From assembly GCA_902621305.1 (NCBI GenBank), contig CACNLM010000001.1, positions 73,005-137,004 on the forward strand: DNA of 64,000 nt. Direction: 5' to 3'. Both the position numbers and the translations under genes were made by a program. This stretch comes from an uncultured Alphaproteobacteria bacterium. Its GTDB lineage: Bacteria > Pseudomonadota > Alphaproteobacteria > HIMB59 > GCA-002718135. This document shows positions 28,303 through 46,298 of this stretch, one piece after another (the stretch's first letter is position 1; each line of letters starts with the position of its first letter). The notes beneath the pieces were generated by a model, which was not told the DNA's origin, ran no database searches, and saw only the letters and a list, made by a program, of their open reading frames with translations.

Positions 28303-28772
28303 TGAAAATGATTATTGATGATTTTAAAGTGCCTATTATTAAAAAAGGTGTTTCATCAGTATCTTCATTAAAAAATGAATTTATAAATAAAAAAATTATT
28401 CTATTTGGTGTTCCGGGGGCATTCACGCCAACTTGTTCTGAGAAACATCTTCCAGGTTACATAAAATTATATAATTCATTTATAGATAAAAAAATTGATG
28501 GTATTTATTGTCTATCTGTAAATGATGAACATGTGATGAAATCTTGGTTAGTGAGTTATACAGAAGGAGAAATAATCAATGGAATTGCAGATGGAAATGC
28601 TGAGATTACAAAATATTTTGACTTGATATCTGATAAGACAAAAAATTATATGGGTTTTAGGTGTAGAAGGTTTGCGATGATAATTGAGAATAATGTGATT
28701 TTAAACAAATTTATTGAAAATGATGGCGAATACAATGTTAGTTCAGCTGAATATATTTTAAAACAAATCTAA
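28299..28772 (+). CDS. peroxiredoxin, Prx5-like (AhpC/TSA family)
   Basis: The motif GVPGAFTPTCS contains the peroxidatic Cys. The ATG overlaps the stop of the dsbD-like gene by 4 nt. Confidence 0.85.
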   Translation: MMKMIIDDFKVPIIKKGVSSVSSLKNEFINKKIILFGVPGAFTPTCSEKHLPGYIKLYNSFIDKKIDGIYCLSVNDEHVMKSWLVSYTEGEIINGIADGNAEITKYFDLISDKTKNYMGFRCRRFAMIIENNVILNKFIENDGEYNVSSAEYILKQI

Positions 28773-29509
28773 TGAATAAAATTAATTTAGAAAATAGAGT
28801 CGCAATTGTAACAGGTGGAGCACAAGGCTTTGGCTTAGCTATTACTAAAAGATTTATAGAGTCAGGTGCAAAAGTATTAATATGGGATAAAGATACAGAA
28901 TATTTAAATAAAGTTGATCTAAAAAATACTCAAAAAATTGAAGTTGATGTTTCAAATTATAAAAGTGTAGAGAATGCATTTGCTGAAAGTATTACATATG
29001 AAAACAAAATTGATATTTTAATAAATAATGCAGGAATAGCTGGACCAAACTTTAAGACATGGGATTACCCACTTGAGGAATGGCAAAAAGTTATAGACAT
29101 AGATCTAAGCGGAGTATTTTATTGCTGTAAAACTATAGTTCCTCATTTTATCAAAAATAATTATGGACGTATCGTTAATATTTCCTCGATAGCTGGTAAG
29201 GAAGGTAATCCTAACGCAATGCCTTATAGTGCAGCAAAAGCAGGAGTTATTGCACTTACTAAATCTTTAGGAAAAGAATTAGCTGAAAATAACATTTCAG
29301 TTAATTGTGTTACCCCTGCACCTGCTAAAACACGTATTTTTGATCAAATTACACAAGAACATATTGATTATATGTTATCAAAAATTCCGAGAAATAGATT
29401 TGTGCTAGTAGAAGAATTAGCCTCTTTAGTTGCTTGGATGTCCTCTGAAGAAAATTCTTACACCACAGGATCAACTTTTGATTTGAGTGGTGGTCGAGCT
29501 ACTTATTAA
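28772..29509 (+). CDS. SDR family oxidoreductase (FabG-like)
   Basis: It has TGGAQGFG (cofactor binding), NNAG and the catalytic YSAAK. Confidence 0.85.
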   Translation: MNKINLENRVAIVTGGAQGFGLAITKRFIESGAKVLIWDKDTEYLNKVDLKNTQKIEVDVSNYKSVENAFAESITYENKIDILINNAGIAGPNFKTWDYPLEEWQKVIDIDLSGVFYCCKTIVPHFIKNNYGRIVNISSIAGKEGNPNAMPYSAAKAGVIALTKSLGKELAENNISVNCVTPAPAKTRIFDQITQEHIDYMLSKIPRNRFVLVEELASLVAWMSSEENSYTTGSTFDLSGGRATY

Positions 29510-30483
29510 TTTTTTCTTCTTTGTATTAGGGCGTAAACTGTAACAGCTACTGTAATCATGAGTCCGTTAATAAATTTTACATAAAAACCAGATAAGCCTA
29601 AAGCAACTATTCCTGACTCTAATGAACCAATAATTAATACTCCTATAAAAGTTCCAAAAATAGTACCTTTGCCACCAAACACTGAAGTGCCACCAACAAA
29701 GACAGCTGCTAGTGTTGTTAACATTAAACCCTCACCTTGTGTAGGCCAGAAATATAACATTTCATACATTGTAAAAATTCCTGCTAAAGCAGAGAAAAAT
29801 CCTAGTTGAACAAAAGCAATAATTTTTACATTATCAACGTTAATTCCCATCATTTGGGCGCTTGCTTTGTTATCACCTACAAAGTGGATATGATTTCCAA
29901 ATTTATGGTATCGATAAACCCATTGCATCAATCCAGTTAATACAATGAACCAAATAAATTGCATTGGAATTTTTCCAAATAATTTTTCAACAAATATCAT
30001 ATGATGCCATGTTCCATCTGCTACATCAACGATTGCAATACCGCTACCTTGAGAAATTACATTAACTAATCCACGCCAAAAAAATAATGTACCTATAGTG
30101 GCAACTATTGAAGGTATGCCAATTTTAGTAACAAGTAATCCATTTATTAATCCCGCAAACATTCCAAGTGAAGTTGCCAAAATAAATGCTATAAAAAAAT
30201 TACCATCAGTCGATGTCATTATAATTCCAAATATGAGAGATGTAATTCCAACTATAGATGGAAATGATAAATCAATTTCACCAAGTGTAACAACAAATGT
30301 TGCTGATATAGCAATAATTCCAAAAAAAGGCATTGATTGCATAAAAGCTCTATAAATAGGAAATCTTGTAAATACATGTGGTGCACCAAGAAAATAAATT
30401 AGGAATAGTACTACAGCAATTATAGTAATACTAATTTCAAGTTTGTGAGTTTTTACAAAATAACTATTTAATAAATTATTCAT
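29506..30483 (-). CDS. carbohydrate-type ABC transporter permease (RbsC/branched BPD_transp_2 family)
   Basis: 325 aa, about ten TM segments with Gly-rich helices. It lies in an operon with a single-domain ATPase and a type-I periplasmic binding protein. Confidence 0.8.
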   Translation of the reverse strand: MNNLLNSYFVKTHKLEISITIIAVVLFLIYFLGAPHVFTRFPIYRAFMQSMPFFGIIAISATFVVTLGEIDLSFPSIVGITSLIFGIIMTSTDGNFFIAFILATSLGMFAGLINGLLVTKIGIPSIVATIGTLFFWRGLVNVISQGSGIAIVDVADGTWHHMIFVEKLFGKIPMQFIWFIVLTGLMQWVYRYHKFGNHIHFVGDNKASAQMMGINVDNVKIIAFVQLGFFSALAGIFTMYEMLYFWPTQGEGLMLTTLAAVFVGGTSVFGGKGTIFGTFIGVLIIGSLESGIVALGLSGFYVKFINGLMITVAVTVYALIQRRKN

Positions 30484-31251
30484 TTACTCTTCCACTTTTA
30501 TTTTTCCTGATTCATGAAGTTGAATCATTTTTTGAACAAGTTCTTCTCTTGTAATATCTTCTTTATTAAATTCCCCAACAACTTCACCTCTATCTAAAAT
30601 TATAAATCTATCTGCAGCACCATATACGTGTATTATATTATGATCGATAAATATTGCAGATTTGTTTTCATTTTTTAAACCTTTTACAAAATTAAGAACT
30701 TTTTCTGTTTCTTGTATCGATAATCCCATTGTTGGTTCATCTAATACGATTAAATCAGAATTAAAATACAATGATCTACCGAAAGCTACACCTTGTTTTT
30801 CGCCACCAGAAAGACCCATTACATGAGAGTCAACTGTTATAGCTTTTGAAGTAAAACCTATATAGTCGCGTAAAATTTTTTCTGCTTCTTTTCTTTGTTT
30901 TTTTATATCCAAAAAACCAAATGAATTTGTAATTTCTCTTCCTGCAAAGATATTTCTGTATAATTCTTGCTGATCACATAATGCTCTTTCTTGATATACT
31001 GCTTCAATTCCCATTTTTCTTGATTGTGCAACTGATTTAATTTGTACCTCTTTTTCTTTAAAAAAAACTTTTCCCGAGTTTGGGCTATGAACTCCAGTTA
31101 TAACTTTAATAAGTGTAGATTTTCCAGCTCCGTTATCACCGATTAAAGCTACCACTTCACCTTTATTTATTTTGATATTCACATCTTTTAAAACTTTTAC
31201 GTTTCCAAAGTTTTTGTAAATATTTTGTAATTTTAAGAGTTCTTCAGCCAT
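30484..31251 (-). CDS. ABC transporter ATP-binding protein (single ABC domain, sugar type)
   Basis: It has Walker A GDNGAGKST, signature LSGGEKQ and Walker B LIVLDEPT. Confidence 0.9.
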   Translation of the reverse strand: MAEELLKLQNIYKNFGNVKVLKDVNIKINKGEVVALIGDNGAGKSTLIKVITGVHSPNSGKVFFKEKEVQIKSVAQSRKMGIEAVYQERALCDQQELYRNIFAGREITNSFGFLDIKKQRKEAEKILRDYIGFTSKAITVDSHVMGLSGGEKQGVAFGRSLYFNSDLIVLDEPTMGLSIQETEKVLNFVKGLKNENKSAIFIDHNIIHVYGAADRFIILDRGEVVGEFNKEDITREELVQKMIQLHESGKIKVEE

Positions 31252-31259: not shown

Positions 31260-31286
31260 AACCTGCCTTATGTAATAAGGCAGGTT
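31260..31286 (-). terminator. intra-operon stem-loop plus U-tract between the binding-protein gene and the ATPase gene
   Basis: The minus-strand RNA reads AACCUGCCUUA-UUACA-UAAGGCAGGUU (11-bp stem) followed by UAUUUUUU, and then the ATPase ATG. It sits 13 nt after the SBP stop. Confidence 0.65.
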
Positions 31287-31298: not shown

Positions 31299-32279
31299 TT
31301 ATCTGATTTGTACTGCTGCTAATGGAGCAACAGCATCAACGTTATCAGCTGTAACAAATGCAGCACCAGTATCCATTGCTAATCCAGCCATTCCATATTT
31401 TGTACTTAGGAATAACTGAACAATTGGCATATATCCTTGGATAAATGGTTGTTGATCAATTACAACATCAATGTATCCAGAATTAATTCCATCAACAATT
31501 GGAGCTGATAAATCAAATCCAGCACCACATACTTCTTCAGTACCGTGACCTGCAGCCTTCATATATGTTGGTAAGCTTGCAGTTAATCCACCATGATCTG
31601 TAATAGCCATTTTGATATCAGGATTTGCACTATAAGTAGCAACGTACATAGGAGTTCCCTGAGATGCATCTGAGTTTACGTTATCAGGAATTTCTTGATA
31701 AACTACCTCAACACCTGCTGCTTCAACACCAGCTATTGCACCTTTAGTTCTTTCTCCTCTATTTGGCATACTTGCAAGACCCCAGATAAATGCTTTATCT
31801 CCAGCTTGTAGACCACAAACTTCAACAGCTTTTTTACCTAGATTAAATCCAGCATCGAATAGATCTGCTCCTGCATAACCAAATCCTTCAGTTTTATATT
31901 CTGATTCAAGATCAGGAAGAGGAGTGTTCATAGTAGTAATTACTATTCCCATTTCTCTAGCTTCTTGAATGATAGGTCTCATTGCAGCGTCACCAGGAAA
32001 ACCATAGATTGCAATTCCATCAGGTTGTAAAGCAACAGCTTCTTTAAATTGTTTAATCATGATTTCTGAGTTCCACTGTGACCAGTAGTAATCTACTTCA
32101 CAACCAGTGTGTTCAGCAGCAGCTACTGCACCATTGTAAACGATAGTTCCAAATGGGCCACCTTCAGGACCACCTGGAAAAAATATAAATTTTTTATCAC
32201 AGCTGTAATCATTTTTTGCTATTGCTGAAGTAGATGCAAAAGCAAAAAATAAAGCAATGACAGCAAAGATTTTTTTCAT
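31299..32279 (-). CDS. sugar/cyclitol-type ABC transporter periplasmic substrate-binding protein (RbsB-like, PBP type I)
   Basis: A signal peptide (MKKIFAVIALFFAFASTSAIA) is followed by a two-lobe PBP pattern. I chose ATG 32279 because GGAGG lies 5 nt upstream. Confidence 0.8.
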   Translation of the reverse strand: MKKIFAVIALFFAFASTSAIAKNDYSCDKKFIFFPGGPEGGPFGTIVYNGAVAAAEHTGCEVDYYWSQWNSEIMIKQFKEAVALQPDGIAIYGFPGDAAMRPIIQEAREMGIVITTMNTPLPDLESEYKTEGFGYAGADLFDAGFNLGKKAVEVCGLQAGDKAFIWGLASMPNRGERTKGAIAGVEAAGVEVVYQEIPDNVNSDASQGTPMYVATYSANPDIKMAITDHGGLTASLPTYMKAAGHGTEEVCGAGFDLSAPIVDGINSGYIDVVIDQQPFIQGYMPIVQLFLSTKYGMAGLAMDTGAAFVTADNVDAVAPLAAVQIR

Positions 32280-32469: not shown

Positions 32470-33456
32470 ATGGATGTTGATTTAGGTAAATGGTATCGAG
32501 CAAATATTGATAAAAAAGAATTCAAGCAGTTATGCAAGAAATCTGATTGGCAGGGTTTTAAGCATATGATTATTTATTTTTCATCTCTATTTCTCTTTGG
32601 ATATCTAGCGTATTTCACTTGGGGTACCTGGTGGTCATTATTATTTTTTATAATTTACGGAAATATTTGGGGATGCAGCGATGCTATATGGCATGAAACT
32701 GGTCACAGAACTGCTTTTAAATCTAAATTTTGGAATGATTTCTTTTATTATATTGCTAGTTTTATGGATAATTTTGAACCTATCAGATGGAGATATTCTC
32801 ACTATCATCATCATACTTATACTCAATTTAATGATCCTGTAGATTTTGAAATACATGTAAAAAAACCAACTGACTTAATTGTGTTTTTCTCACATTACAT
32901 TCCATTCTCTGGTTTTATTTTCTTTAAAAATTCTCTTCAATGGGAAACTATAAAACATGCATTTGGTGTAACTACTGATGTAATGAAAGTTTGTATTCCA
33001 AAAAATGAAAGATGGAAATGTAGATTATCTGCGTGGAGTCATCTTTCTATTTGGATAATTAGTATAGCTTCTTCAGTTTACTTTCAAAGTTGGCTTCCAG
33101 TTCTATACGTTTTATTGCCTAATTTTTATGGAAAGACGCTTGTTATGCTTATGGGTCTTACTCAACACGCAGGACTTAGAGAAGATAAAAGAGATCATAG
33201 GTATACAACTAGAACAGTATATTTAAATCCAGTTTTAAGTTTTTTATATTGGCATATGGAATATCATGTTGAGCACCATATGTTCCCCCAAGTTCCCTCA
33301 CATAATTTACCTAAGCTGCATGCTATGATTAAAGATCAATTACCACCTGCCAGAAAAGGTCTTCTTGGGGCTTATAAAGAAATTATTCCAGCACTCATAA
33401 AACAAGCAAAAAATCCTGACTATCAAATTCCATTATCTGTTCCAAGCAACGCTTAG
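32470..33456 (+). CDS. membrane di-iron oxygenase of the fatty-acid-desaturase fold (MocD/AlkB-like), paralog 1
   Basis: 328 aa with His boxes HETGH, HYHHH and HVEHH, plus QHAG, and hydrophobic hairpins. It is followed by its own ferredoxin reductase and Rieske ferredoxin. Confidence 0.8.
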   Translation: MDVDLGKWYRANIDKKEFKQLCKKSDWQGFKHMIIYFSSLFLFGYLAYFTWGTWWSLLFFIIYGNIWGCSDAIWHETGHRTAFKSKFWNDFFYYIASFMDNFEPIRWRYSHYHHHTYTQFNDPVDFEIHVKKPTDLIVFFSHYIPFSGFIFFKNSLQWETIKHAFGVTTDVMKVCIPKNERWKCRLSAWSHLSIWIISIASSVYFQSWLPVLYVLLPNFYGKTLVMLMGLTQHAGLREDKRDHRYTTRTVYLNPVLSFLYWHMEYHVEHHMFPQVPSHNLPKLHAMIKDQLPPARKGLLGAYKEIIPALIKQAKNPDYQIPLSVPSNA

Positions 33457-33461
33457 ACTGA

Positions 33462-34691
33462 GTGAAAAATAACATTATAATTTTAGGTGGTGGTCAAGCC
33501 GGAATCTATGCTGCTAGAGAGATCAGACAAAATGATTCAAAATTAAATATTAAAATTTTAAGTGAAGAAAATTTATTACCATACGAAAGACCTCCTTTAT
33601 CTAAAGATTTTTTGCTAGATAAAAAAAAAGAAGAAGATCTTTATTTTCATTCTAGCGACGTACTAAAAAATGAAAATATAGAATTTGAAAATATATCAAT
33701 TAATAAAGTTGATTTTGAAAATAAAAAACTTTTTGCAAAAAATGATAATGTTTACTCTTATGATAGTTTGCTTATTTCAACAGGTTCTGAAAATAAAAAA
33801 CTTACTTTAGATAATAATTTGAAGAATGACATTTATTATCTAAGAAATTTAGAAGAAGCCAAAAAAATTAAAGAAATAGTTTCAAATAAAAATAAAATAA
33901 CAATTATTGGAGGTGGTTTCATTGGCTTAGAAATTGCCTCATCTTTATCTCAGCTTCAAAAGAAAGTAATTGTTATTGAAATTGGTAATCAACTTATGGG
34001 AAGAATTATACCCAAACAAATTGCTGATTTAGTTCAAAACACTCATATAGAACATGGAAATGAAATAATATTAAATAAACAGATAGAAAAAATAACTAAA
34101 AAAAATGGCGATTATGAAATTTTATTAAATGATAATTCTTTAATAGAAACAGATTTTATAATTGCAGGTATAGGCTCAACCCCGACTGTAAAGTTATTTG
34201 AAAATACAAATTTAAAGCTTGATAATGGTATTGTAACTAATCAATTTTGTGAAACTTCTATTAAAGATGTTTATGCAGCAGGTGATGTATCTAATTTTTA
34301 TCATCCATTCTATGAAAGAAATATGCGACTCGAGTCTTATCAACATGCGCAAAATCATGGAATATGTGCTGGAAAAAATATTGCTGGAGTAAAAACAGAA
34401 TACACTTCAATTCCTTGGATGTGGTCTGATCAATTTAATTTGAATCTTCAACTGACTGGTATTTGTAATGATTATGATGAAATCATTGAAAGAGGTAATG
34501 ATATTAATAATGGTGTAATTTATTTTTTTCTAAAAAATAAAATAATAAGAGGTGCATGTGGTCTAGGAATTGCAGGAAAAATTGGTCGCGACATTAGAAT
34601 TACTTCTAAATTAAGTGAAAAAAATACCATTGTAGATAAACAAATTCTCTCAGATCAAAATCTAAAATTAAATAAACTTATACAAAAATAA
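33462..34691 (+). CDS. FAD-dependent NAD(P)H:ferredoxin reductase (pyridine nucleotide-disulfide oxidoreductase family)
   Basis: 409 aa with the FAD site ILGGGQAG, the NAD site IIGGGFIGLE and AAGDV. The C-terminal dimerisation domain is typical of Rieske or putidaredoxin reductases. Confidence 0.85.
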   Translation: MKNNIIILGGGQAGIYAAREIRQNDSKLNIKILSEENLLPYERPPLSKDFLLDKKKEEDLYFHSSDVLKNENIEFENISINKVDFENKKLFAKNDNVYSYDSLLISTGSENKKLTLDNNLKNDIYYLRNLEEAKKIKEIVSNKNKITIIGGGFIGLEIASSLSQLQKKVIVIEIGNQLMGRIIPKQIADLVQNTHIEHGNEIILNKQIEKITKKNGDYEILLNDNSLIETDFIIAGIGSTPTVKLFENTNLKLDNGIVTNQFCETSIKDVYAAGDVSNFYHPFYERNMRLESYQHAQNHGICAGKNIAGVKTEYTSIPWMWSDQFNLNLQLTGICNDYDEIIERGNDINNGVIYFFLKNKIIRGACGLGIAGKIGRDIRITSKLSEKNTIVDKQILSDQNLKLNKLIQK

Positions 34692-34743
34692 CAATTTAAT
34701 TATTTTGTATTTATTTTCATAAAATAGCTATTATATACAATTT

Positions 34744-35061
34744 ATGTCTGAAGAAAATTGGATTGAAGTAGGGTCTACAGATAGTATTGAAGAAGAGGAT
34801 CTCATAAGATTTGACCATCAAGATAAAACTTTTTGTGTGTATAAGCTAACAGATGGTTTTTATGCTACTGATGGAATTTGTACACACGAGGCGGTACACC
34901 TTGAAGATGGTTTGGTTATGGATGATGAAATTGAATGTCCAATGCACCAAGGAATTTTTAATATTAAATCTGGTGAAGCCTTAAGCCCCCCAGCGTGTGA
35001 GGATTTAAAAACATACCCAGTTAAAGTTGATAATGACAAAATTTTCATTAAGATAAATTAA
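34744..35061 (+). CDS. Rieske [2Fe-2S] ferredoxin
   Basis: 105 aa with a CTH-x16-CPMH cluster-binding motif. Its size is that of a stand-alone oxygenase ferredoxin component. Confidence 0.9.
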   Translation: MSEENWIEVGSTDSIEEEDLIRFDHQDKTFCVYKLTDGFYATDGICTHEAVHLEDGLVMDDEIECPMHQGIFNIKSGEALSPPACEDLKTYPVKVDNDKIFIKIN

Positions 35062-35080
35062 ATATTCTTTTGGAGGTTTT

Positions 35081-35908
35081 ATGAGTAGAAAAAAACTTAC
35101 AGTTTACGATTATTTGCAATGTAAAGGTAAAAGACAACTAAGTGTTATGTTTGTACATAATGCTGACGAAGCTGCAGCAGCTGAAGAGGCTGGCATTGAC
35201 ATGATTTGTACTTCTCATGATGCTCCACAATTTGGTATTTACAATTCTTTTGATGAGCTTAAGCGAATTCGCGAGGCTGCACCAACTTGCTTTATGCAAT
35301 CCGGAGGGGCAGTAAGAGTAGCTTCTGAATACGAAGCAATGAAACTATCACACAAGTATTTAGATATTGGCGCAGATGTTATCTATGGTGGTAATTGGAG
35401 TTACAAATGGATTAGAGCATTAAGAGATGAGTATGTTCCAATTAATAGTCATGTTGGATTAGTTCCAGGAAATGCTACTTGGATTGGAGGATTCGTTGCA
35501 CAAGGTAAAACTGCTGATAAAGCCGTTAGAATTTTAGAACATACTCTTGAGTTACAAGAAGCGGGGGCTATCGGAGTTGAACTCGAAGTAGTTCCTCCAA
35601 AAGTTGCAGAAGTTATTACAAAAAAAGTTGATATCATGACTCTCTCAATGGGAAGTGGTTCTGGATGTGATGGGCAATATTTATTTGCTAATGATGTACT
35701 CGGATATACCCAAGGAAAAATTCCAAGACATGCGCGAATTTATAGAGATTTTAAAAAAGAATTTGCAAAATTACAAGCTGAAAGAGTAAGTGCATTCAAA
35801 GAGTTTCACGATGATACGGTAAACAAAAAATTTAATGATCCTAAAATCACAGTTAACATTGATGAAAGTGAATTTGAAAAATTTTTAAAGCTTTCAGAAA
35901 AATTTTGA
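35081..35908 (+). CDS. PanB-like protein (ketopantoate hydroxymethyltransferase fold, divergent)
   Basis: 275 aa. The C-terminal half matches PanB blocks (SHVGLVPG, ELEVVP, GSGSGCDGQ, IPRHAR). The N-terminal motifs look substituted by eye. A GGAGG RBS is present. Confidence 0.6.
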   Translation: MSRKKLTVYDYLQCKGKRQLSVMFVHNADEAAAAEEAGIDMICTSHDAPQFGIYNSFDELKRIREAAPTCFMQSGGAVRVASEYEAMKLSHKYLDIGADVIYGGNWSYKWIRALRDEYVPINSHVGLVPGNATWIGGFVAQGKTADKAVRILEHTLELQEAGAIGVELEVVPPKVAEVITKKVDIMTLSMGSGSGCDGQYLFANDVLGYTQGKIPRHARIYRDFKKEFAKLQAERVSAFKEFHDDTVNKKFNDPKITVNIDESEFEKFLKLSEKF

Positions 35909-35911
35909 TTA

Positions 35912-36928
35912 ATGTTTGCGGGCGAAGTTGATTTAAAAACTTGGTATAAACCAAAAATTGATAAGAAAACTTTAAAGGAACTTTCTAAGAGATCTGATAC
36001 AAAAGGTTTATTAGATATATCCATATTTATTGTTGCTCTAATATTAAGTGGATATCTGTGTATTCTAAGTTGGGGTACTTTATGGTCAATACCTGCTCTT
36101 TTGCTTTATGGAAATATTTTCTATTGTAAAATCATAAGCATTCAACATGAAACAAATCACGAAACATATTTTAAAACAAGAGCGTTAAATAAACTTTTTT
36201 ATCATATAACTTCTTTACTCGGTGGTTTTGAAGCAGTTAGATGGAAGTGGAGTCATTTTCATCACCATACTTATACTATATTTACACATCAGGAGGTGTA
36301 CGACTACGAAAATAATAGTCCTAAACCAACAGAACCTGTTAGGTTTCTTTTAAATTTTTTACCTCTTGGTCCAATAATTAATATTCAAAAAATAAGACAT
36401 TTTACACATTTTGAAATTATTAAACATTCATTTGGAATAATTACTCCTGTTGTAAAAGTTACTGTACCTGAAAAGGAGATCAAAAAAATTATTAATAGTT
36501 CCAGGTTATATTTAGGTTTTTGGTTACTTGTAATTTTTTCCTCAGTTTTCTTACAATCATGGTTACCAATCATAATGATAATTCTACCCCCATTTTATGG
36601 GAATACTATATTGATGATTTGTGGCATGACTCAACATGCTGGACTAGCTGATAATATTAAAGATCATAGAAAAAGTACAAGAACCGTTATTATGAATCCC
36701 TTTTTTAGTTTTTTGTATTCAAACATGGAGTATCATATTGAGCATCATATTTTCCCAAAAATCCCATGCCATAATTTAAAAAAATTTCACAAAATAGTTA
36801 AAAATCAAATGCCAGAACCTCATAACGGAATAATTTCTGCTTATAGATCAATAATCCCAGCAATATTTAAGCAATCTAAAGATAAAAATTATTTTATTGA
36901 TGTGAAGGTTCCAGATACGACAATTTAG
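35912..36928 (+). CDS. membrane di-iron oxygenase of the fatty-acid-desaturase fold, paralog 2
   Basis: 338 aa and alignable end to end with the 32470 gene. Its His boxes are HETNH, HFHHH and HIEHH, and it shares FLQSWLP, GMTQHAGL, DHR.STRTV and IIPAIFKQSK. Confidence 0.8.
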   Translation: MFAGEVDLKTWYKPKIDKKTLKELSKRSDTKGLLDISIFIVALILSGYLCILSWGTLWSIPALLLYGNIFYCKIISIQHETNHETYFKTRALNKLFYHITSLLGGFEAVRWKWSHFHHHTYTIFTHQEVYDYENNSPKPTEPVRFLLNFLPLGPIINIQKIRHFTHFEIIKHSFGIITPVVKVTVPEKEIKKIINSSRLYLGFWLLVIFSSVFLQSWLPIIMIILPPFYGNTILMICGMTQHAGLADNIKDHRKSTRTVIMNPFFSFLYSNMEYHIEHHIFPKIPCHNLKKFHKIVKNQMPEPHNGIISAYRSIIPAIFKQSKDKNYFIDVKVPDTTI

Positions 36929-36966
36929 TCTCTTTTTTTTTATTCAAAATATACTATAAATACATC

Positions 36967-37971
36967 ATGGGAAATCAACTAAATGATAGTGATTTTGGTA
37001 CAAGAGATAAAAGAGGTCATTGGAAACCATTTGGTACAATAAGTATTAATCCACCTAAAGATATATTTTTTAACCCAATTAAATTTTTGAAGTATTTTTT
37101 TAAATTTCCGGGAATTTTTTTCCCATGGACCTTTGTCTTTGCAGCAATAACAGTTGCTACATATCTTTTTTTGACTCCTTCTTTAGAGACAATGAAGACT
37201 TTTGAAATAGGATGGATATCCTATATTTTTTTTAGAAACTCAGTTATTATTTTGCTTTGGACAGGCTTCTTTCATTTAAGACTAAAGACACAAGGAACTT
37301 CATTTAAATATAACCCACGACCTCTAGAAAAAAATAACTCAACTTTTTTATTTAATGATCAGACTAAAGACAACCTATTCTATACTTTTTGTAGTGCTAT
37401 TCCATTATGGACAGCTTATGAAGTAATTACATTTTGGGCATTTGCAAATCAAATAATCCCATATGTAAGCTGGGAAGCTTATCCGATATATTGTTGTTTT
37501 ATGTTCTTTCTTGTTCCATTTATAAGAGACGCACATTTTTACTTAACTCATAGATTATTACACTGGGCACCACTTTATAAAATTGCGCATAAAGTTCATC
37601 ACCGTAATACAAATACAGGTGCTTGGTCAGGTATGTCTATGCATCCAATAGAGCATATACTCTATTTTTCAGGAATCTTAGTTCATTGGATAATTCCTTC
37701 ACATCCTCTTGTTGCGATGTATCATGTATTTCATGCTGGTTTAGCACCTACACCTGGACATACTGGATATGAAAAAATGACTTTTAAAAATGGTGTATCA
37801 ATCCCAACAGGTGATTATATGCATTATATTCATCACAAATATTTTGAATGCAATTACTCAGGCGGAAATACTAGTTTCTTAGATAAATTAATGGGTACGT
37901 TCCATGATGGATCTGAAGAAGCAACCAAAGAAGTAATGGCTCGTATCAAAGATAAAGCCCATTACCTCTAA
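36967..37971 (+). CDS. fatty acid hydroxylase / sterol desaturase superfamily membrane oxygenase
   Basis: 334 aa with His boxes HFYLTH(RLLH), HKVHH(RN) and HYIHHKYF, and four or more TM segments. Confidence 0.75.
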   Translation: MGNQLNDSDFGTRDKRGHWKPFGTISINPPKDIFFNPIKFLKYFFKFPGIFFPWTFVFAAITVATYLFLTPSLETMKTFEIGWISYIFFRNSVIILLWTGFFHLRLKTQGTSFKYNPRPLEKNNSTFLFNDQTKDNLFYTFCSAIPLWTAYEVITFWAFANQIIPYVSWEAYPIYCCFMFFLVPFIRDAHFYLTHRLLHWAPLYKIAHKVHHRNTNTGAWSGMSMHPIEHILYFSGILVHWIIPSHPLVAMYHVFHAGLAPTPGHTGYEKMTFKNGVSIPTGDYMHYIHHKYFECNYSGGNTSFLDKLMGTFHDGSEEATKEVMARIKDKAHYL

Positions 37972-38015: not shown

Positions 38016-38891
38016 ATGAGTAAGGTTGAATTATATAAAGATGTAAAAAATAGTTTGGGAGAGGGTATTACTTGGTCTTCAATTGACCAAAGTTTATTTT
38101 GGGTAGATATTAAACCAAAATCAGTTTTATTCAGAATTAATTTAGATAACGAAAAATTAGAAACTTTTGACTTACCCGATTTTGTAACAGCGACGTCAAT
38201 AATCTCAAAGAATGAAATTGCTTTAGTCTCAAATAATGGGGTAAATAAATTTAACTTTCAATCTAAAAAATACGAAAGAATAATTAATGTTGAAGATGAT
38301 ATTTTAACAAATAGATCTAATGATGGTGCATCTGACGTTAGGGGCAGGCTTTGGTTTGGCACTATGCAAAATAATTTTAATCAAGATGGAAGTGCAAAAT
38401 CTTTAAATGCTAAATCTGGAAGTTTATATTGTTTATCTGATAATAAGGTAAATATTGTTGAAACAAATCTTGGTATACCTAATACATTTGTTTGGAGTCC
38501 AGATAACACGAAATTTTATTTTGCCGATACAACTGAGGGATCATTACTAGAATACAATTTTAACCTAGACGAAGGTAGTTTGTCAGATAAAAAAAACTTC
38601 TTCGATTTTGATAGAGGTGCTCCAGATGGATCAACTATTGATAGTGATGGTTTTATTTGGAATTGTCGTTGGGGTGGATCATGTATAGTGAGAATTGATC
38701 CTAAAGGAAGAATGGATAAAATCTATGAGCTACCTGTTGAAAATGTAACTAATTGTGTATTTGGAGGAAGTGATCTTAAAACTTTATTTATTACAAGTGC
38801 AGCAAATTCAGGTAAAAATCAACATGATGGTAGTCTATTTGCATTAAATGTTAATGTGCCTGGGCTTGAAGATAATAAATTTAAAATTTGA
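38016..38891 (+). CDS. SMP-30/gluconolactonase/LRE family lactonase
   Basis: 291 aa with LGEGITW, NDG..D..GR.WFGTM, PDG...D..G and a six-blade propeller repeat pattern. Confidence 0.85.
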   Translation: MSKVELYKDVKNSLGEGITWSSIDQSLFWVDIKPKSVLFRINLDNEKLETFDLPDFVTATSIISKNEIALVSNNGVNKFNFQSKKYERIINVEDDILTNRSNDGASDVRGRLWFGTMQNNFNQDGSAKSLNAKSGSLYCLSDNKVNIVETNLGIPNTFVWSPDNTKFYFADTTEGSLLEYNFNLDEGSLSDKKNFFDFDRGAPDGSTIDSDGFIWNCRWGGSCIVRIDPKGRMDKIYELPVENVTNCVFGGSDLKTLFITSAANSGKNQHDGSLFALNVNVPGLEDNKFKI

Positions 38892-38923: not shown

Positions 38924-40657
38924 ATGAATAAAAAAAATAAATTTAGATCTTCTAATTGGTATAATTCTAAATCACATCGAAGAGATACATTTATTCATAG
39001 AGGCTGGATGAGAAATCAAGGTCATCCAAATCATTTATTTGATGGCCGTCCTGTAATTGGTATTTGTAATACATGGTCAGAATTAACTCCTTGTAATGGT
39101 CATTTCAGAGAGATAGCAGAGTCTGTTAAAAAAGGTGTTTATGAAGCTGGCGGTTTTCCTCTTGAATTTCCTGTTTTTTCAGCAAGTGAATCCAACTTAA
39201 GACCTACTGCTATGTTGTTTAGAAATTTAGCAAGTATGGATGTTGAAGAGGCAATAAGGGGTAATCCTATAGACGGAGTCGTACTATTAATGGGGTGTGA
39301 TAAAACAACACCTTCATTAATGATGGGAGCTGCAAGTGTCGATCTTCCTACAATAGGTGTTTCAGGTGGCCCAATGCTTAATGGACATCATCAAGGAGAA
39401 CAAATTGGTTCTGGAACTGGTGTTTGGAAACTTGATGCTGATTTAAATGCAGGTGAAATTACAGAAGAAGATTTTATTAATGCAGAAATTTCAATGAGTA
39501 GATCAAAAGGAAATTGTATGACAATGGGGACTGCTTCAACAATGGGTTCAATGGTAGAAGCATTAGGAATGTCACTTCCTGGAAATGCCGCAATACCCGC
39601 AGTGGACTCCAGAAGATATGCTTTAGCACATATGTCTGGAAAAAGAATTGTTGAAATGGTCAAGGAAGATATAACAATGTCAAAAATTGTTACAAAAAAA
39701 TCATTTGAAAATGCGATTAAAGTAAATGGAGCAATAGGTGGATCTACGAATGCAGTTATCCACTTAGCTGCAATTGCAGGTCGAATGGAAATTGATTTAG
39801 ATTTAGATGATTGGAATAAATGCGGAGATGGCATTCCAACATTAGTAAATCTCCAACCTTCAGGAAAATACTTAATGGAAGATTTTTATTATGCAGGTGG
39901 TGTACCTGTAGTCATAAAAAGATTAATGGAAAAAAAATTACTAGATGAAAATTCAATGACTGTTAATGGAAAAACAATAGCTGAAAATAATTTAAACGCT
40001 AAATGTTGGAATAATGATGTTATAAAAGAATTTGAAAATCCATTAACCAAAAATGGAGGAATTAAAATTCTTAGAGGCAATATAGCTCCAAATGGTGCAA
40101 TTATTAAGCCATCAGCTGCTTCACCAAAATTAATGAAACATACTGGAAAAGCGGTAGTTTTTGAAAGTGTGGAAGAGTTTCATGAAAAGATTGATGATCC
40201 CAATTTAGACGTTGATGAAAATTCCATATTAGTTTTAAAGAATTGTGGTCCAAAAGGTTATCCTGGTATGGCTGAAGTAGGAAATATGCGTCTTCCACAA
40301 AAAGTTCTTAAAAAAGGTGTGAGAGATATGATTAGAATATCTGACGCTAGAATGAGTGGAACAGCATACGGTACCGTAATACTTCATACATCTCCAGAAG
40401 CTGCAGTTAAAGGTCCTTTAGCAGCAGTTCAAAATGGTGATGAAATAGAAGTAGATGTTGATCAGGGTATAATGAATTTAAAAGTTAATGATGAAACAAT
40501 AAAAAATCGTCTAGAAAATTATTCACCTGTTGTCCCAGAAATAACAGGTGGTTATCAAAAAATGTATGTAGAGCATGTTATGCAAGCTGACAAAGGAGCA
40601 GATTTAGATTTTCTAATTGGAAAAAGAGGAGCTGAAGTCAAAAGACATAGTCATTAA
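38924..40657 (+). CDS. IlvD/Edd family dehydratase (context suggests an aldonate/sugar-acid dehydratase)
   Basis: 577 aa with the Fe-S ligand region GCDKTTPS, then CMTMGTAST, GGSTNAV.HL and SDARMSG. Confidence 0.85.
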   Translation: MNKKNKFRSSNWYNSKSHRRDTFIHRGWMRNQGHPNHLFDGRPVIGICNTWSELTPCNGHFREIAESVKKGVYEAGGFPLEFPVFSASESNLRPTAMLFRNLASMDVEEAIRGNPIDGVVLLMGCDKTTPSLMMGAASVDLPTIGVSGGPMLNGHHQGEQIGSGTGVWKLDADLNAGEITEEDFINAEISMSRSKGNCMTMGTASTMGSMVEALGMSLPGNAAIPAVDSRRYALAHMSGKRIVEMVKEDITMSKIVTKKSFENAIKVNGAIGGSTNAVIHLAAIAGRMEIDLDLDDWNKCGDGIPTLVNLQPSGKYLMEDFYYAGGVPVVIKRLMEKKLLDENSMTVNGKTIAENNLNAKCWNNDVIKEFENPLTKNGGIKILRGNIAPNGAIIKPSAASPKLMKHTGKAVVFESVEEFHEKIDDPNLDVDENSILVLKNCGPKGYPGMAEVGNMRLPQKVLKKGVRDMIRISDARMSGTAYGTVILHTSPEAAVKGPLAAVQNGDEIEVDVDQGIMNLKVNDETIKNRLENYSPVVPEITGGYQKMYVEHVMQADKGADLDFLIGKRGAEVKRHSH

Positions 40658-40676: not shown

Positions 40677-41726
40677 ATGAATAACAATTTTAATCCTTTG
40701 TCTGCTGAAGAATTAACTTCAAGAATAAATAAAATTCCTAGAGTTAATCTAGCTCAATTACCTACTGTACTTGAATTTGCACCTAATATTTCTAAAGAGT
40801 TGGGTATAAATCTTTATATCAAACGAGATGATTGCACTGCATTAGCTTTTGGGGGAAACAAAACAAGACATTTAGAGTTTATAATGGCTAAAACATTATC
40901 AGGAGATTATGACTGTATTTTAACTGGGGCTGCATCTCAATCTAATTTTTGCCGCCAAGCTGTAGCTGCTGCAAATAAACTAAATTTAGATAGTTATTTA
41001 GTATTAATGCATGGAATAAAAGGTAACTTAATGCAAGGTAATTTTTTATTATATAATATTCTGGGAGCTAATGTTGATGTTATTGATGGTGAGAATTTAG
41101 AAGAAATACCAAAGCATTTAGATATAAAATATAATGAGTTAATAAAAGAAGGTCGAAAACCTCTATTAATTTATGGAGGTTTTGGTAAAGAGGATACCAC
41201 TCTTGCTGGTATAAGTTATGCAAATGCTATGGCTGAAATTGATTTACAAATGAAAGAGCAAAATTTTATGGCAGATCATCTATTTGTTACTGCTGCTAAT
41301 ATGACACAAGCAGGTTGTGAATTAGGAGCTAAGATATTAAATTGGCCAACTCGTATTCAAGGTATTTCTCCTGTTTATTGGGAAATGAATATTAAAAAAG
41401 ATATTGCGAGAATATGTAATGATGCAGCAAAGATGCTTGATATTAATTTAGAGTTTTCACATAAAATGATTAATCATGACAATAATTATGTAGGTAAAAA
41501 ATATGGTGCGACTACAGAAGACGGAATAAAAGCAACAAAACTTTTAGCTAATAAAGAGGGAATTATTTTAGATCCAGTTTATACATCAAAAGGTTTTGCA
41601 GCTTTAATTGATTATGTTGAAAAAGGAATCATTAAGAGAGGTGAAAACGTCATTTTTATATTCACTGGTGGTAGTCCGGCAGTTTTTGCATATAACGATG
41701 AAATTGCAAATAATTCTACTCAATAA
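40677..41726 (+). CDS. PLP-dependent enzyme of the ACC deaminase / D-cysteine desulfhydrase family
   Basis: 349 aa with the PLP lysine motif FGGNKTRHLEF. It has the fold-type II pattern and a C-terminal FTGG. Confidence 0.8.
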   Translation: MNNNFNPLSAEELTSRINKIPRVNLAQLPTVLEFAPNISKELGINLYIKRDDCTALAFGGNKTRHLEFIMAKTLSGDYDCILTGAASQSNFCRQAVAAANKLNLDSYLVLMHGIKGNLMQGNFLLYNILGANVDVIDGENLEEIPKHLDIKYNELIKEGRKPLLIYGGFGKEDTTLAGISYANAMAEIDLQMKEQNFMADHLFVTAANMTQAGCELGAKILNWPTRIQGISPVYWEMNIKKDIARICNDAAKMLDINLEFSHKMINHDNNYVGKKYGATTEDGIKATKLLANKEGIILDPVYTSKGFAALIDYVEKGIIKRGENVIFIFTGGSPAVFAYNDEIANNSTQ

Positions 41727-42900
41727 TTTCAAATTTATCTAAATATTTATTTGATAACTTAATACCTAATCCATGTTTATTTTCATCTAATTCGATAAAA
41801 CCATTTTTTGCTTGAGGTTCGCCATCAAAAATATACCAAAATAATTCATTGCCAATTTCTACAGGCCAAAAAGGAAAATACTCAACTATTGGAGCGTTTA
41901 CTGAACTCATAGAAATATGAAAATTATGAACTTGTCCTGCGTGAGGAATAACTGGTATTTGAAATGCTTCAGCTAAAGCAGAAATTTTATGCGCCTGTGT
42001 TATACCACCAACTCTATTCGTATCAAATTGCACAACATCAATTGCTTTTTTTTCTAGTAATTGTCTAAAACCAAAAAGTGTATATTCATGTTCACCACCA
42101 GATATAGGAGTTCTACATGAGGCTTTTAGATTTGCATAACCATCAATATCATCAGCAATAACTGGTTCTTCTAACCAACGAAGATTTTCATTATCAATTA
42201 ATCGCATCATTCTTTTTGCATACTCAAATGTCCATCCCATATATACATCTGCCATAAGATCAACATTATCACCAACAACTGATCGCACTGTTTTGATTAA
42301 CTCAATATTTTTATGCATACCCTCAGCACCATCAGTGGGACCCCAACCAAGTCTTAATTTCATTGCTTTAAAACCTTGATCAACATAATCCTTAGCTTCT
42401 TTTGCAAGACTATCAAGAGGTTGACTATAAAGCTTACTTGCATAACAGGGGAGTTTTGATTTAGTTTTTCCACCTAATAATTTGAATACGGGTTGTTTAG
42501 CAGATTTTCCAAGTGCATCCCATATTGCAATATCAACAGCACTAATAGCTGTCATACCTACACCTTTTCTCCCCCAAGCAAGTGTTTGGCGATACATCTT
42601 TTGCCATATATGCTCATAATCCCATATACTTTCACCAATAATGGCTGGAGCTAGGTAAGTATCTACAACTGATTTACATGGTTCTGGGGATAATGCAGCA
42701 TTACCTAAACCTATCAAACCATCACTTGTTTCTACCTCAACAACTAACCAGCTATGAAATTTATATGTTGTCCATCTATCATTTGAAATATTTTCTTGAT
42801 TCACAATATCTGCAGCATTTGTGCAAAAATTTTCATGAATTTTTTGAACGGGCCCTGTCCATTTATAGACCTTTGCTTTAACACTTACAATTTTACTCAC
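41716..42900 (-). CDS. enolase-superfamily acid-sugar dehydratase (mandelate racemase/muconate lactonizing family, rhamnonate/fuconate-dehydratase-like)
   Basis: 394 aa with a capping domain and a TIM barrel carrying the metal ligands DVYMGW, LEEP and SGGEH. The overall layout resembles L-rhamnonate dehydratase. Confidence 0.8.
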   Translation of the reverse strand: MSKIVSVKAKVYKWTGPVQKIHENFCTNAADIVNQENISNDRWTTYKFHSWLVVEVETSDGLIGLGNAALSPEPCKSVVDTYLAPAIIGESIWDYEHIWQKMYRQTLAWGRKGVGMTAISAVDIAIWDALGKSAKQPVFKLLGGKTKSKLPCYASKLYSQPLDSLAKEAKDYVDQGFKAMKLRLGWGPTDGAEGMHKNIELIKTVRSVVGDNVDLMADVYMGWTFEYAKRMMRLIDNENLRWLEEPVIADDIDGYANLKASCRTPISGGEHEYTLFGFRQLLEKKAIDVVQFDTNRVGGITQAHKISALAEAFQIPVIPHAGQVHNFHISMSSVNAPIVEYFPFWPVEIGNELFWYIFDGEPQAKNGFIELDENKHGLGIKLSNKYLDKFEIIE

Positions 42901-42949
42901 AAAATAATTATTATACTAATTTAAATCAATTTAAGAGAAATTTTTAATA

Positions 42950-43927: not shown

Positions 43928-44835
43928 TAAATTCTATAAAACTTTTCTGCATTTTTTAAAAAAATTTTATCATGTTCATTTTGTGAAAAATTTTTTACAA
44001 TATTAAAGTATGAACTCCAATAATTATCAAAAGTATTAAAAATTTTATCTACAGGAAAATTTGATCCAAACATACACCTATCAATACCAAAAATTTCAAT
44101 TGTATTAAGAATAAAATATTCAGTAGAAATAATTGTCCAACTAGGATTAAACATCCCCAACCCTGATATTTTACAAGCAAAATTTTCATGTTCGGCTAAA
44201 GATTGCATCTTTCTCATCCAATATTTTTTATATTCTTCTGTTTGAAAACAAGGCTCACCAGTATGGTTTAAGATAAATTGTACATTTGGGTAACGTTTTG
44301 CTAATTTACAAGCATCATCAAACTGATGAGGATATATTTGTATATCAAAAGATAATTTTCTATTGGCCAAATGTCTAAAGTTTTCTTGCCATAACTCATC
44401 TTTTAAATAATCTTTTTTAGCATGAGAATATTGCGGTTTATCTTTATCAAATGACAAAATTTGTCTAATTCCTCGTACATTTTTATATTCAAGGTGTTGA
44501 TCAAGAACTTCGCTGACTTTTTTTTCAGAAAAATCAGCAAATGCAACAATCCCATGTGGGATTTTTAAATTATTATTATCTGAAATTTTTTGTAACCATT
44601 TTGTTTCTTCTATCGGGTTCATTGCATCATGTTCAGCCTGAACATGTATTGATTTCACAAGATTTTGATTCTTTGCATCATTTAAATAATCATCTAATAA
44701 ATAACTCTTTTTAATACTTTTAAAACTTCCATAAAAAGCTTCGTCTTCATTACCACTTAACCAAGGATAATGTGTTTCTTTAGAATCAAGATCCCATAGA
44801 TGATGATGTGAATCAACAATAGCTATTTTTTTCAT
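43927..44835 (-). CDS. amidohydrolase-2 family protein (L-fucono/rhamnono-lactonase-like)
   Basis: 302 aa. The N-terminal IVDSHHHLWD is typical of the amidohydrolase-superfamily sugar lactonases, and a later H.GEP motif is present. Confidence 0.7.
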   Translation of the reverse strand: MKKIAIVDSHHHLWDLDSKETHYPWLSGNEDEAFYGSFKSIKKSYLLDDYLNDAKNQNLVKSIHVQAEHDAMNPIEETKWLQKISDNNNLKIPHGIVAFADFSEKKVSEVLDQHLEYKNVRGIRQILSFDKDKPQYSHAKKDYLKDELWQENFRHLANRKLSFDIQIYPHQFDDACKLAKRYPNVQFILNHTGEPCFQTEEYKKYWMRKMQSLAEHENFACKISGLGMFNPSWTIISTEYFILNTIEIFGIDRCMFGSNFPVDKIFNTFDNYWSSYFNIVKNFSQNEHDKIFLKNAEKFYRI

Positions 44836-46289: not shown

Positions 46290-46298
46290 TTTTATAAA

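Follow-up and report, generated by a model that had tools for sequence, protein, structure and literature searches.

What would three membrane di-iron oxygenases, one electron-transfer chain and a PanB-like protein do together beside a sugar-type ATP-binding cassette (ABC) transporter? The question is raised by six genes at positions 32470-37971 of the DNA analyzed here (the window), a 64,000-nucleotide stretch of contig CACNLM010000001.1 (assembly GCA_902621305.1, positions 73,005 to 137,004) from an uncultured alphaproteobacterium, with a G+C content of ~0.29 throughout and SAR11 single-cell genomes as its closest contigs. On balance, the family matches and gene contexts lean towards a catabolic island for imported O-methylated carbohydrates, which would be demethylated, with their one-carbon (C1) units passed to tetrahydrofolate (THF) and the sugars sent along a lactonase/dehydratase route. 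The six genes stand first in the following array.

32470..33456, + strand: Des1, a MocD-like membrane di-iron oxygenase of the FA_desaturase fold (FA_desaturase, 112.8 bits)
33462..34691, + strand: FAD/NAD(P)H ferredoxin reductase, MocF-like (Pyr_redox_2, 207.5 bits; Reductase_C, 45.4 bits)
34744..35061, + strand: Rieske-type [2Fe-2S] ferredoxin, MocE-like (Rieske, 60.5 bits)
35081..35908, + strand: PanB-like TIM-barrel protein (Pantoate_transf, 130.9 bits)
35912..36928, + strand: Des2, the second MocD-like membrane di-iron oxygenase (FA_desaturase, 115.2 bits)
36967..37971, + strand: FAH, a membrane di-iron oxygenase of the FA_hydroxylase/sterol-desaturase fold (FA_hydroxylase, 71.3 bits)
38016..38891, + strand: sugar lactonase of the SMP-30/gluconolactonase family (SGL, 239.8 bits)
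38924..40657, + strand: sugar-acid dehydratase of the IlvD/EDD family (ILVD_EDD_N, 376.8 bits)
40677..41726, + strand: pyridoxal phosphate (PLP) enzyme of the D-cysteine desulfhydrase/1-aminocyclopropane-1-carboxylate (ACC) deaminase/CuyA family (PALP, 115.8 bits)

In an initial annotation, made from the sequence alone, the six genes led a run of nine on one strand, separated by only 3-52 nucleotides (nt), and the open reading frames (ORFs) bear this out. All six ORFs lie at exactly the coordinates it gave them, and the intergenic gaps along the array are 5, 52, 19, 3, 38, 44, 32 and 19 nt. Histidine and cysteine motifs can be read in the translations, and a hidden Markov model search against Pfam matched every domain that had been named (FA_desaturase twice, Pyr_redox_2, Rieske, Pantoate_transf and FA_hydroxylase). 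The ORFs are long and their family matches strong, so that chance does not account for them.

The oxygenases, their redox chain and their distribution

Des1 and Des2 carry the His boxes HETGH, HYHHH, HVEHH and HETNH, HFHHH, HIEHH, respectively, and are 45% identical, in keeping with the earlier description of the second desaturase-fold protein as clearly paralogous to the first. Paired hydrophobic stretches are present in the hydropathy profiles of Des1, Des2 and FAH, and in none of those of the PanB-like protein, the ferredoxin and the reductase. Des1 is 39-43% identical to rhizobial proteins of the MocD clade, and the SAR11 Des paralogs taken together are 34-43% identical to that clade, with the boxes HE(C/T)xH, HxxHH and H(V/I)EHH in common. 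In a neighbor-joining tree, four SAR11 Des subfamilies (43-54% mutual identity), among them a SAR11 subclade of its own for Des2, group together as the sister of the rhizobial MocD clade (internally 60-84% identical); the SAR11 paralogs fall outside the MocD clade itself and are in that sense not its orthologs. The outgroups were XylM, which is only 16-20% identical to the SAR11 Des proteins and distant in the tree, and three distant plasmid homologs. Of the comparisons proposed in the initial annotation, this tree covers those with MocD and XylM, and it places Des1 and Des2 beside the former and far from the latter.

Against the NCBIfam lipid-desaturase equivalogs, Des1 and Des2 score 36.6-38.2 bits (DesB) and 21-28 bits (DesA), with cutoffs of 500, and the CrtR model gives 19-26 bits (cutoff 475). 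GntB is the closest model besides the lipid desaturases, at only 31-43 bits (cutoff 380), and with L-arginine it offers a precedent in this fold for a soluble substrate. A sequence search of solved structures with Des1 found no relative even at an E-value of 1, and a tblastn search of plasmids with the same protein returned 294 records, mainly Rhizobium and Sinorhizobium megaplasmids at ~35-45% identity. More distant Des homologs, named "fatty acid desaturase family" and 25-30% identical, were seen in two further small-molecule contexts. On plasmid SAP045A of Staphylococcus epidermidis (L093, 2-3106), the homolog diverges from a PLP regulator of the MocR type and has a LysE exporter gene after it. 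In Paracoccus seriniphilus (L091, 1933-4343), it is under LysR regulation, and a ferredoxin of the MocE family comes after it.

The ferredoxin, with the motif CTH-x16-CPMH, scores 136.0 bits on the TIGR02377 MocE-family model, just under its cutoff of 136.15, and is 53-59% identical to MocE-family ferredoxins of moc-type loci, the upper value being that to MocE of locus L085, itself at 178 bits on the MocE model. Together with the Des clade sister to MocD, this supports the Moc-like composition first proposed for the cluster. The reductase is HcaD-like (299 bits, NCBIfam) and 30-32% identical to reductases in moc-type loci (32% to that of L085). FAH, with the motifs HFYLTH, HKVHH and HYIHH and a PF04116 score well in excess of its cutoff (71.3 vs 31 bits), has homologs of 45-53% identity in Rhizobium, Bradyrhizobium, Mesorhizobium and Jiella, annotated as "sterol desaturase family protein", and outside SAR11 these adjoin PanB-like, Rieske and reductase genes. 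In Bradyrhizobium and Mesorhizobium, an AraC gene is divergent from a run of ribokinase, PanB-like protein, FAH homolog, Rieske ferredoxin and reductase, with an extra TIM-barrel gene ahead of the reductase in the Bradyrhizobium locus. In the marine Jiella pelagia, the FAH homolog is followed by an unlisted gene of the Des type, which shares 37.7% identity with Des1, and after this come a ferredoxin of the MocE family and a reductase. Because of these loci, both oxygenase folds can be taken to use the same type of Rieske/reductase chain and to be able to share one. This supports three oxygenases on a single chain in SAR11, and it also means that the combination is not unique to SAR11. The shared redox chain of the initial annotation is thus strengthened, in particular by Jiella, where both folds lie beside one ferredoxin/reductase pair. 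The chain is not always encoded locally, as both folds are adjacent in one transporter operon of R. leguminosarum Vaf-108 with no local redox genes, and in some SAR11 variants neither a Rieske ferredoxin nor a reductase is encoded near Des1.

In order to follow the cluster across SAR11, one genome per species was surveyed, and Des1 relatives were found in 138 genomes, nearly all of them Pelagibacterales single-cell or metagenome-assembled genomes. Loci at ≥70% identity to Des1 make up an ortholog set of 72, and the counts given here are over those with enough flanking sequence (66 or 58). The ABC binding protein lies upstream of Des1 in 62/66 loci, the PanB-like gene is present in 60/66, the reductase and ferredoxin in 58/66, and Des2 and FAH, which always occur together and complete the set of three oxygenases, in 53/66. 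The lactonase and the IlvD-type dehydratase were each found in 49/58 loci. The cluster is thus kept as a unit across 72 SAR11 species-level genomes, which was the neighborhood conservation that the initial annotation had asked after. Its flanks are conserved as well, with DsbD and a peroxiredoxin on one side and a set of enolase-type, PdxA-like and amidohydrolase genes on the other.

Several variants of the island were observed. A second PanB-like gene lies right after Des2 in 14/66 loci, which gives one PanB-like gene per Des gene in some SAR11 genomes. Other loci hold only the PanB-like gene followed by Des1, with local redox genes absent, or have Des2 and FAH replaced by another lactonase, a short-chain dehydrogenase/reductase (SDR) and two enolase-type genes. 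Among the 138 genomes, the complete one of Candidatus Pelagibacter sp. Uisw_094 (L041, NZ_CP159823.1, 412626-433603) has the variant with two PanB-like genes in the order Des1, reductase, Rieske, PanB-like, Des2, second PanB-like, FAH, and there a TctABC transporter takes the place of the downstream lactonase and dehydratase genes. A second locus in the same SAR11 cells (L076-L082, e.g., L081:2725-10966) contains two more MocD-like genes, 51-55% identical to Des1. These flank an aldehyde dehydrogenase, a CUT2 transporter, a ThuA-like gene and a Gfo/Idh/MocA gene, after which a CUT1 transporter follows, and the best match of the CUT2 binding protein is, as in the main cluster, the rhizopine model. 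As this locus has no redox partners of its own, it presumably borrows the ferredoxin and reductase of the main cluster. Each SAR11 cell would thus have at least four or five MocD-like paralogs.

The layout had at first been matched to nothing described; apart from the number of oxygenases, it is a widespread mocDEF-plus-PanB-like architecture. On S. meliloti pSymB and several Rhizobium plasmids, a LacI gene is divergent from genes in the order Des-Rieske-reductase-PanB-like, an order also seen on metagenome contigs. Plasmid pRLa11 of R. leguminosarum A1 has the same four genes after a regulator that passes the MocR equivalog (751 vs 650 bits), with IolE (394.7 vs 290), Gfo/Idh/MocA genes and sugar binding proteins nearby and with purU after the four genes (PurU equivalog, 330.6 vs 285.95). 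Marivivens and R. sophoriradicis have Des-Rieske-PanB-like with no local reductase. Further neighbors of the module are as follows.

Marivivens: sugar ABC transporter, iolG and iolC
Rhizobium sp. Q54: iolC, iolG and an ABC system with a "rhizopine-binding protein"
R. leguminosarum Vaf-108: ABC operon ending in sterol-desaturase-family and FA-desaturase-family genes, beside iolE and iolD
Metagenome contigs of other lineages: LacI, TIM-barrel isomerase, CUT2 transporter and Gfo/Idh/MocA

The module of S. meliloti 1021 (L002, pSymB, NC_003078.1 ~607.06-610.8 kb) adjoins capsule genes (ABC-2, Capsule_synth). Between the Des protein encoded there and the MocD of a moc-type locus, identity is 80%. 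The strain carries the module although the literature describes it as a rhizopine non-producer, and the module is a genetically tractable test bed.

The PanB-like protein

The Pantoate_transf match of the PanB-like protein covers only profile positions 91-256 of 259, the C-terminal two thirds, and the NCBIfam PanB models remain below their cutoffs (NF001452, 118.6 vs 272 bits; TIGR00222, 103 vs 207.55 bits), as they also do for the PanB-like protein of the moc locus. Identity to E. coli PanB is 22-29%. In every member examined, Asp45, Ser46, Asp84, Lys112 and Glu114 (E. coli numbering) are substituted or deleted, with Gly or Ala in place of Asp84, Tyr in place of Lys112 (Ile in the branch linked to FAH) and deletions at both sites. 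In the 1M3U structure, these lost residues reportedly hold Mg2+ and the keto acid. The family retains His136, GLxP, GG(F/Y), Glu181-x-V-P, GxG and Asp209 and adds a family-specific Glu179, an extra conserved C-terminal helix region and invariant residues of its own that PanB does not have (D10, R18, E30, R64, D99, Y102, W134, K143, E167, R216, H217 and Y221). An AlphaFold2 model (pLDDT 83.6, pTM 0.84), whose low-confidence loops 128-138 and 209-221 are the sites of the most conserved motifs, was compared with solved structures in Foldseek. The 28 best matches from the PDB are all PanB (TM 0.63-0.78), and class II aldolases and methylisocitrate lyases come next with E-values more than four orders weaker. 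The protein is thus modeled with the (beta-alpha)8 fold of PanB, and its residues mark it, as far as sequence can tell, as something other than a genuine ketopantoate hydroxymethyltransferase.

Every source name seen for the family is nonetheless "3-methyl-2-oxobutanoate hydroxymethyltransferase", and a profile search found at least 5,757 such proteins at E ≤1e-20 (among 8,000 scored). In the oxygenase-linked contexts seen, the neighbors are oxygenase, redox and sugar genes, with no panC, panD or panE. In R. leguminosarum WSM2304, the PanB-like gene is located on pRLG202, and another replicon, pRLG201, has a PanB-type match of its own that is more distant. The gene is present in ~8/12 of the non-SAR11 modules examined. 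Among metagenome loci of the PanB-like gene with at least 2.5 kb on both sides, 12/14 carry a Des or FAH gene, 11 of them within 3 kb. On contigs from another lineage, the genes flanking the PanB-like side differ, so the conserved island ends at the PanB-like gene. By its recurrence across SAR11, rhizobial and metagenome modules, the protein is no oddity of the layout and is better described as a mis-annotated core partner of the oxygenases, predicted to be no functional PanB. It is not their exclusive partner, an idea that was rejected as stand-alone copies lie beside DUF2332, M17 peptidase and acyl-CoA dehydrogenase genes. On the high-GC contigs L164 (2869-4842), L155, L165 and L170, a stand-alone PanB-like gene lies by DUF2332 (344 bits) with no oxygenase close. 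As such copies recur, the family may have a second role besides the oxygenase modules.

Since the PanB-like protein accompanies two unrelated oxygenase folds and different downstream pathways, it would appear to track a shared chemistry and not a particular sugar skeleton. Hydroxymethyl transfer from methylene-THF is, to our knowledge, the only chemistry known for the PanB family. The fold, the loss of the keto-acid half of a site whose remainder is conserved, the partnership with two folds and the position of purU directly 3' of the PanB-like gene in the moc operon of R. leguminosarum A1 pRLa11 are the basis of the hypothesis that the PanB-like protein may be a folate-directed C1 handler. A role as an accessory C1 trap would explain why the gene is frequent and yet dispensable.

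Predicted imported substrate, proposed route and rival readings

The transporter and the genes next to it lie on the other side of Des1.

28772..29509, + strand: SDR-family dehydrogenase (Pfam adh_short, 177 bits)
29506..30483, - strand: ABC transporter permease, CUT2 type (ORF; conserved in orthologous loci)
30484..31251, - strand: ABC transporter ATPase (ORF; conserved in orthologous loci)
31260..31286, no strand: hairpin with a 12-bp stem in the gap between the binding-protein and ATPase genes (terminator-like site)
31299..32279 (alternative start 32303), - strand: periplasmic solute-binding protein, CUT2/RbsB type (Peripla_BP_4, 106.9 bits)

For the binding protein, the start first assigned at 32279 is favored over 32303 by a GGAGG just 5' of its ATG. 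Among NCBIfam models it matches the rhizopine binding protein best, but with only 83 bits (cutoff 420), and because of this the term MocB-like, which had been given to the RbsB-type transporter, holds at the family level only; a divergent CUT2 ABC transporter (29506-32279/32303) is indeed present, whereas its likeness to MocB does not go beyond membership of CUT2. The PDB relatives of the binding protein are all sugar binding proteins, at E 5e-14 or weaker, and the permease is 88-100% identical across orthologous SAR11 loci. A study of SAR11 transport proteins characterized another, CUT1 sugar binding protein (SAR11_0769), and ribose, fucose and inositol are mentioned nowhere in its text. Elsewhere, the module is found under LacI or AraC regulators, near ribokinase, TIM-barrel isomerases, Gfo/Idh/MocA, iolG, iolC, iolE and iolD. 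The imported, soluble substrate that had been proposed agrees with the link of the module to CUT2 transporters in SAR11, rhizobia, Marivivens and metagenome contigs, where lipid genes are never near. The perfect 12-bp hairpin at 31260-31286 is a candidate intra-operon attenuator, which may govern how much binding protein is made relative to transporter. As the counts from a promoter and terminator scan of the region are those expected from shuffling, with terminator-like sites not above chance, they offer no evidence of operon boundaries. A search for riboswitches found none close to the cluster, and no local regulator was found at the SAR11 array. Two tandem glutamine riboswitch aptamers (RF01739) are present in the window at 23442-23497 and 23510-23564 (+ strand; 64 and 59.7 bits, gathering score 35).

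The sugar-acid enzymes reported downstream are confirmed, with the lactonase and the dehydratase in the same operon as the oxygenases. The IlvD-type dehydratase passes the subfamily model NF004784 (919 bits, cutoff 539) and stays below the equivalog for L-arabinonate dehydratase (841.7 bits, cutoff 882). In the variant locus L054, a DHDPS-family enzyme occurs together with a match that exceeds the cutoff of the galactonate dehydratase equivalog (324.7 vs 311). These matches weakly suggest an aldose of galacto or arabino configuration. The SDR, which adjoins the transporter in most SAR11 loci, scores 194.6 bits on the glucose 1-dehydrogenase subfamily NF005559 (cutoff 215) and is a candidate sugar 1-dehydrogenase for the demethylated product. 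The PALP enzyme, at 267 bits on the CuyA equivalog (cutoff 450), was rejected as a core pathway step, and it is regarded as accessory and variable since it is present in only 26/58 loci. Further downstream, at window positions 41716-52293, there is another sugar-acid set, with an enolase-type dehydratase whose best match is L-rhamnonate dehydratase (240 bits vs 393), an Amidohydro_2 lactonase whose best match is L-fucono-1,5-lactonase (89.7 vs 400), a PdxA-like dehydrogenase, Gfo/Idh/MocA, FAD-linked oxidase, Ldh_2, a beta-lactamase-fold protein, EamA and an FGGY kinase. There is an 11-nt overlap (41716-41726) between the enolase-type gene and the PALP gene, which converge. Pfam and NCBIfam scans found no MocR or iol genes in the array, and the nearest Gfo/Idh/MocA gene (45234-46289) is outside it. 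An inositol route in SAR11 is unsupported, as the window is without iol genes and the iol link is confined to rhizobia and Marivivens, where the context points to methyl-inositols. The SAR11 substrates are most likely methylated aldoses, with methylated cyclitols less likely, and the three oxygenases may serve different methyl positions or different sugars. [quoted passage not shown]

In the demethylation route favored here, the CUT2 transporter would bring in the O-methyl substrate, and electrons would pass, as family and synteny suggest, from NAD(P)H through the FAD reductase and the soluble Rieske ferredoxin to Des1, Des2 and FAH, whose active sites would face the cytoplasm. By homology to MocDEF, each oxygenase would hydroxylate an O-methyl group, with a ring position or a sugar of its own, and the resulting hemiacetal would collapse to a free hydroxyl and a C1 unit at the oxidation level of formaldehyde. 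The PanB-like protein might then move this hydroxymethyl or formaldehyde unit onto THF to give 5,10-methylene-THF, a capture that would avoid free formaldehyde and feed the folate-linked C1 oxidation of SAR11. Release of free formaldehyde had been part of the initial annotation, and the C1 unit is instead probably passed to folate. The demethylated aldose would, judging by family matches, be oxidized by the SDR, its lactone opened by the SGL lactonase and the sugar acid turned into a 2-keto-3-deoxy acid by the IlvD-type dehydratase.

A number of observations weigh against this reading. The role of MocDEF is itself based on genetics and on a model from 1998. Lipid desaturases are set aside here through equivalog scores and gene context and not through phylogeny. 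We know of no enzyme of the MocDEF family that has been reconstituted. The binding protein is, by sequence, only distantly related to any characterized one, so that its ligand is a candidate only, and the array contains no aldolase or kinase for a 2-keto-3-deoxy acid. For the folate step in particular, purU adjacency was found in only 1/~12 non-SAR11 loci, and purU, folate and C1 genes are absent from the window and from every SAR11 locus examined. The PanB-like gene is missing from modules L091, L095, L096 and, within the stretch fetched, L089, it stands alone with the same signature in unrelated contexts on high-GC contigs, and the window has three oxygenases and only one PanB-like gene. Folate binding cannot be read from sequence, and we know of no PanB-folate complex that could serve for comparison.

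Several of these points would also fit demethylation with formaldehyde simply released and an unrelated role for the PanB-like protein, such as an isomerase, lyase or aldolase acting on the skeleton or the 2-keto acid. The occurrence of modules without the PanB-like gene and of the gene without modules, the lack of folate genes in SAR11 loci, the class II aldolases and methylisocitrate lyases that follow PanB among structural neighbors and the family's own invariant residues, foreign to PanB, all speak for such a role. We consider it unlikely, however, as a skeleton-specific enzyme would not be expected to join two oxygenase folds and either iol or sugar-acid pathways, the Mg2+ ligands that lyases of the phosphoenolpyruvate (PEP)-mutase/isocitrate-lyase superfamily need are gone, and purU follows the PanB-like gene in a moc operon.

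The oxygenases might also hydroxylate a C-H bond of a soluble substrate without C1 release, for example, at the C6 methyl of fucose or rhamnose or on a cyclitol or amino compound. GntB is among the best NCBIfam matches, though at only 31-43 bits, the neighboring dehydratase and lactonase weakly resemble enzymes for L-rhamnonate and L-fucono-1,5-lactone, and sterol C4-methyl oxidases of the FA_hydroxylase family do oxidize C-methyl groups. This is quite improbable, however, as MocDEF, the only relative studied genetically, has been assigned O-demethylation, the link to a PanB fold and, once, to purU points to C1 release, and the pathways known to us degrade 6-deoxyhexoses without prior hydroxylation.

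That the three enzymes are membrane-lipid desaturases and a sterol or lipid hydroxylase with coincidental sugar neighbors, as their Pfam families, their public names ("fatty acid desaturase", "sterol desaturase family protein") and their embedding in the membrane would have it, is very improbable given scores of 21-38 bits against DesA/DesB cutoffs of 500 (the initial annotation had likewise favored an imported small molecule over membrane acyl chains as the substrate), the absence of lipid-synthesis or membrane-adaptation genes from window positions 28-52 kb and from all related loci, operon linkage to sugar ABC transporters or regulators in SAR11, Rhizobiaceae, Bradyrhizobium, Mesorhizobium, Marivivens, Jiella and metagenomes, a dedicated ferredoxin and reductase, and at least four or five such paralogs in a streamlined genome.

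Significance and comparison with known systems

Among the bacteria of the surface ocean, SAR11 is the most abundant group, and it is regarded as a user of few carbohydrates. The cluster would give these bacteria a route into methylated sugars, reported to be a large part of semi-labile marine DOM polysaccharide, and would tie sugar use to their folate-based C1 oxidation. Gene content, conservation, family relationships and the loss of the residues that reportedly form the PanB catalytic site are established directly. By its genes, the SAR11 cluster is the widespread mocDEF-plus-PanB-like module, expanded to three oxygenases on what is predicted to be one chain, and the PanB-like partner is the main new finding. 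In this module, a membrane di-iron oxygenase of either fold is joined by a reductase, its Rieske ferredoxin and a protein of the PanB fold. The module occurs in the open ocean as well as in the rhizobial catabolism of rhizopine and methyl-inositols, so that one reconstitution would annotate thousands of genes.

We further propose, tentatively and as something possible rather than probable, that the PanB-like proteins are an unrecognized class of THF-dependent hydroxymethyl/formaldehyde transferases that dock on di-iron O-demethylases of two folds, and that SAR11 harvests the C1 units of methyl sugars in this way. If this is true, SAR11 would be a major overlooked sink for methyl sugars, with the methyl groups used as methylene-THF for energy, and automated predictions of pantothenate biosynthesis that rely on a PanB-like gene would be wrong. 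The misnaming of the gene can in any case corrupt predictions of vitamin B5 auxotrophy.

The closest known system is MocDEF, cited as an oxygenase system for the demethylation of 3-O-methyl-scyllo-inosamine (PMC13434037). Clusters of mocDEF linked to LacI and TIM-barrel genes have been treated as acting on an inositol derivative (PMC3538637), and the biochemistry of related mocDEF-type clusters is called unresolved in the literature. A full-text literature search returned no description of the module or of its PanB-like partner, and the MocDEF papers found make no mention of a PanB-like gene. Both systems combine an FA_desaturase-fold oxygenase with the same His boxes, a Rieske ferredoxin that is of the MocE family or, in SAR11, at the border of it, and an FAD reductase, both adjoin a CUT2 ABC transporter, and the moc-type operon of L085 also runs into a PanB-like gene. 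In contrast to MocDEF, the SAR11 Des proteins are 34-43% identical to MocD and form a sister clade outside the MocD clade, each chain has three oxygenases of two folds instead of one, the order is Des-reductase-Rieske and not Des-Rieske-reductase, and the array has a lactonase and a sugar-acid dehydratase in place of MocR, MocA, MocC and iol genes. The SAR11 cluster is thus predicted to work like MocDEF, but in orthology and gene context it differs from the rhizopine system itself.

The other comparisons each concern one part of the cluster. With PanB (1M3U, 3VAV, 3EZ4, 1OY0 and 1O66), the PanB-like protein shares the (beta-alpha)8 fold at TM 0.63-0.78, whereas it sits in catabolic islands and not in pan operons and has lost the active-site residues. 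GntB, the L-arginine gamma-hydroxylase of guanitoxin biosynthesis, is likewise an FA_desaturase-fold membrane enzyme with a small soluble substrate, but it is a biosynthetic C-H hydroxylase without Rieske, reductase or PanB-like partners. In the marine Bacteroidetes Zobellia and Formosa, 6-O-methyl-D-galactose is demethylated by a P450/ferredoxin/reductase system (PMC6292453, PMC9400963). There too, a three-component NAD(P)H-dependent monooxygenase removes the O-methyl group of a sugar as C1 at the formaldehyde level, in bacteria that feed on algal carbohydrates. That system employs a soluble haem P450 and another type of ferredoxin, whereas the SAR11 enzymes are membrane di-iron proteins, and it frees formaldehyde that is detoxified separately, whereas capture by a PanB-fold protein is proposed for SAR11.

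A precedent for such capture is the trimethylamine N-oxide (TMAO) demethylase, in which folate captures the formaldehyde derived from demethylation (PMC13619132). With Tdm and the other folate-coupled demethylases (DmdA and the dimethylglycine and sarcosine oxidases), the SAR11 cluster would share a coupling to 5,10-methylene-THF in which no formaldehyde is set free. In those enzymes, a THF domain of the GcvT fold is fused to the enzyme, whereas the candidate in SAR11 is a separate PanB-fold protein. Folate-coupled demethylation is prominent in the C1 metabolism of SAR11.

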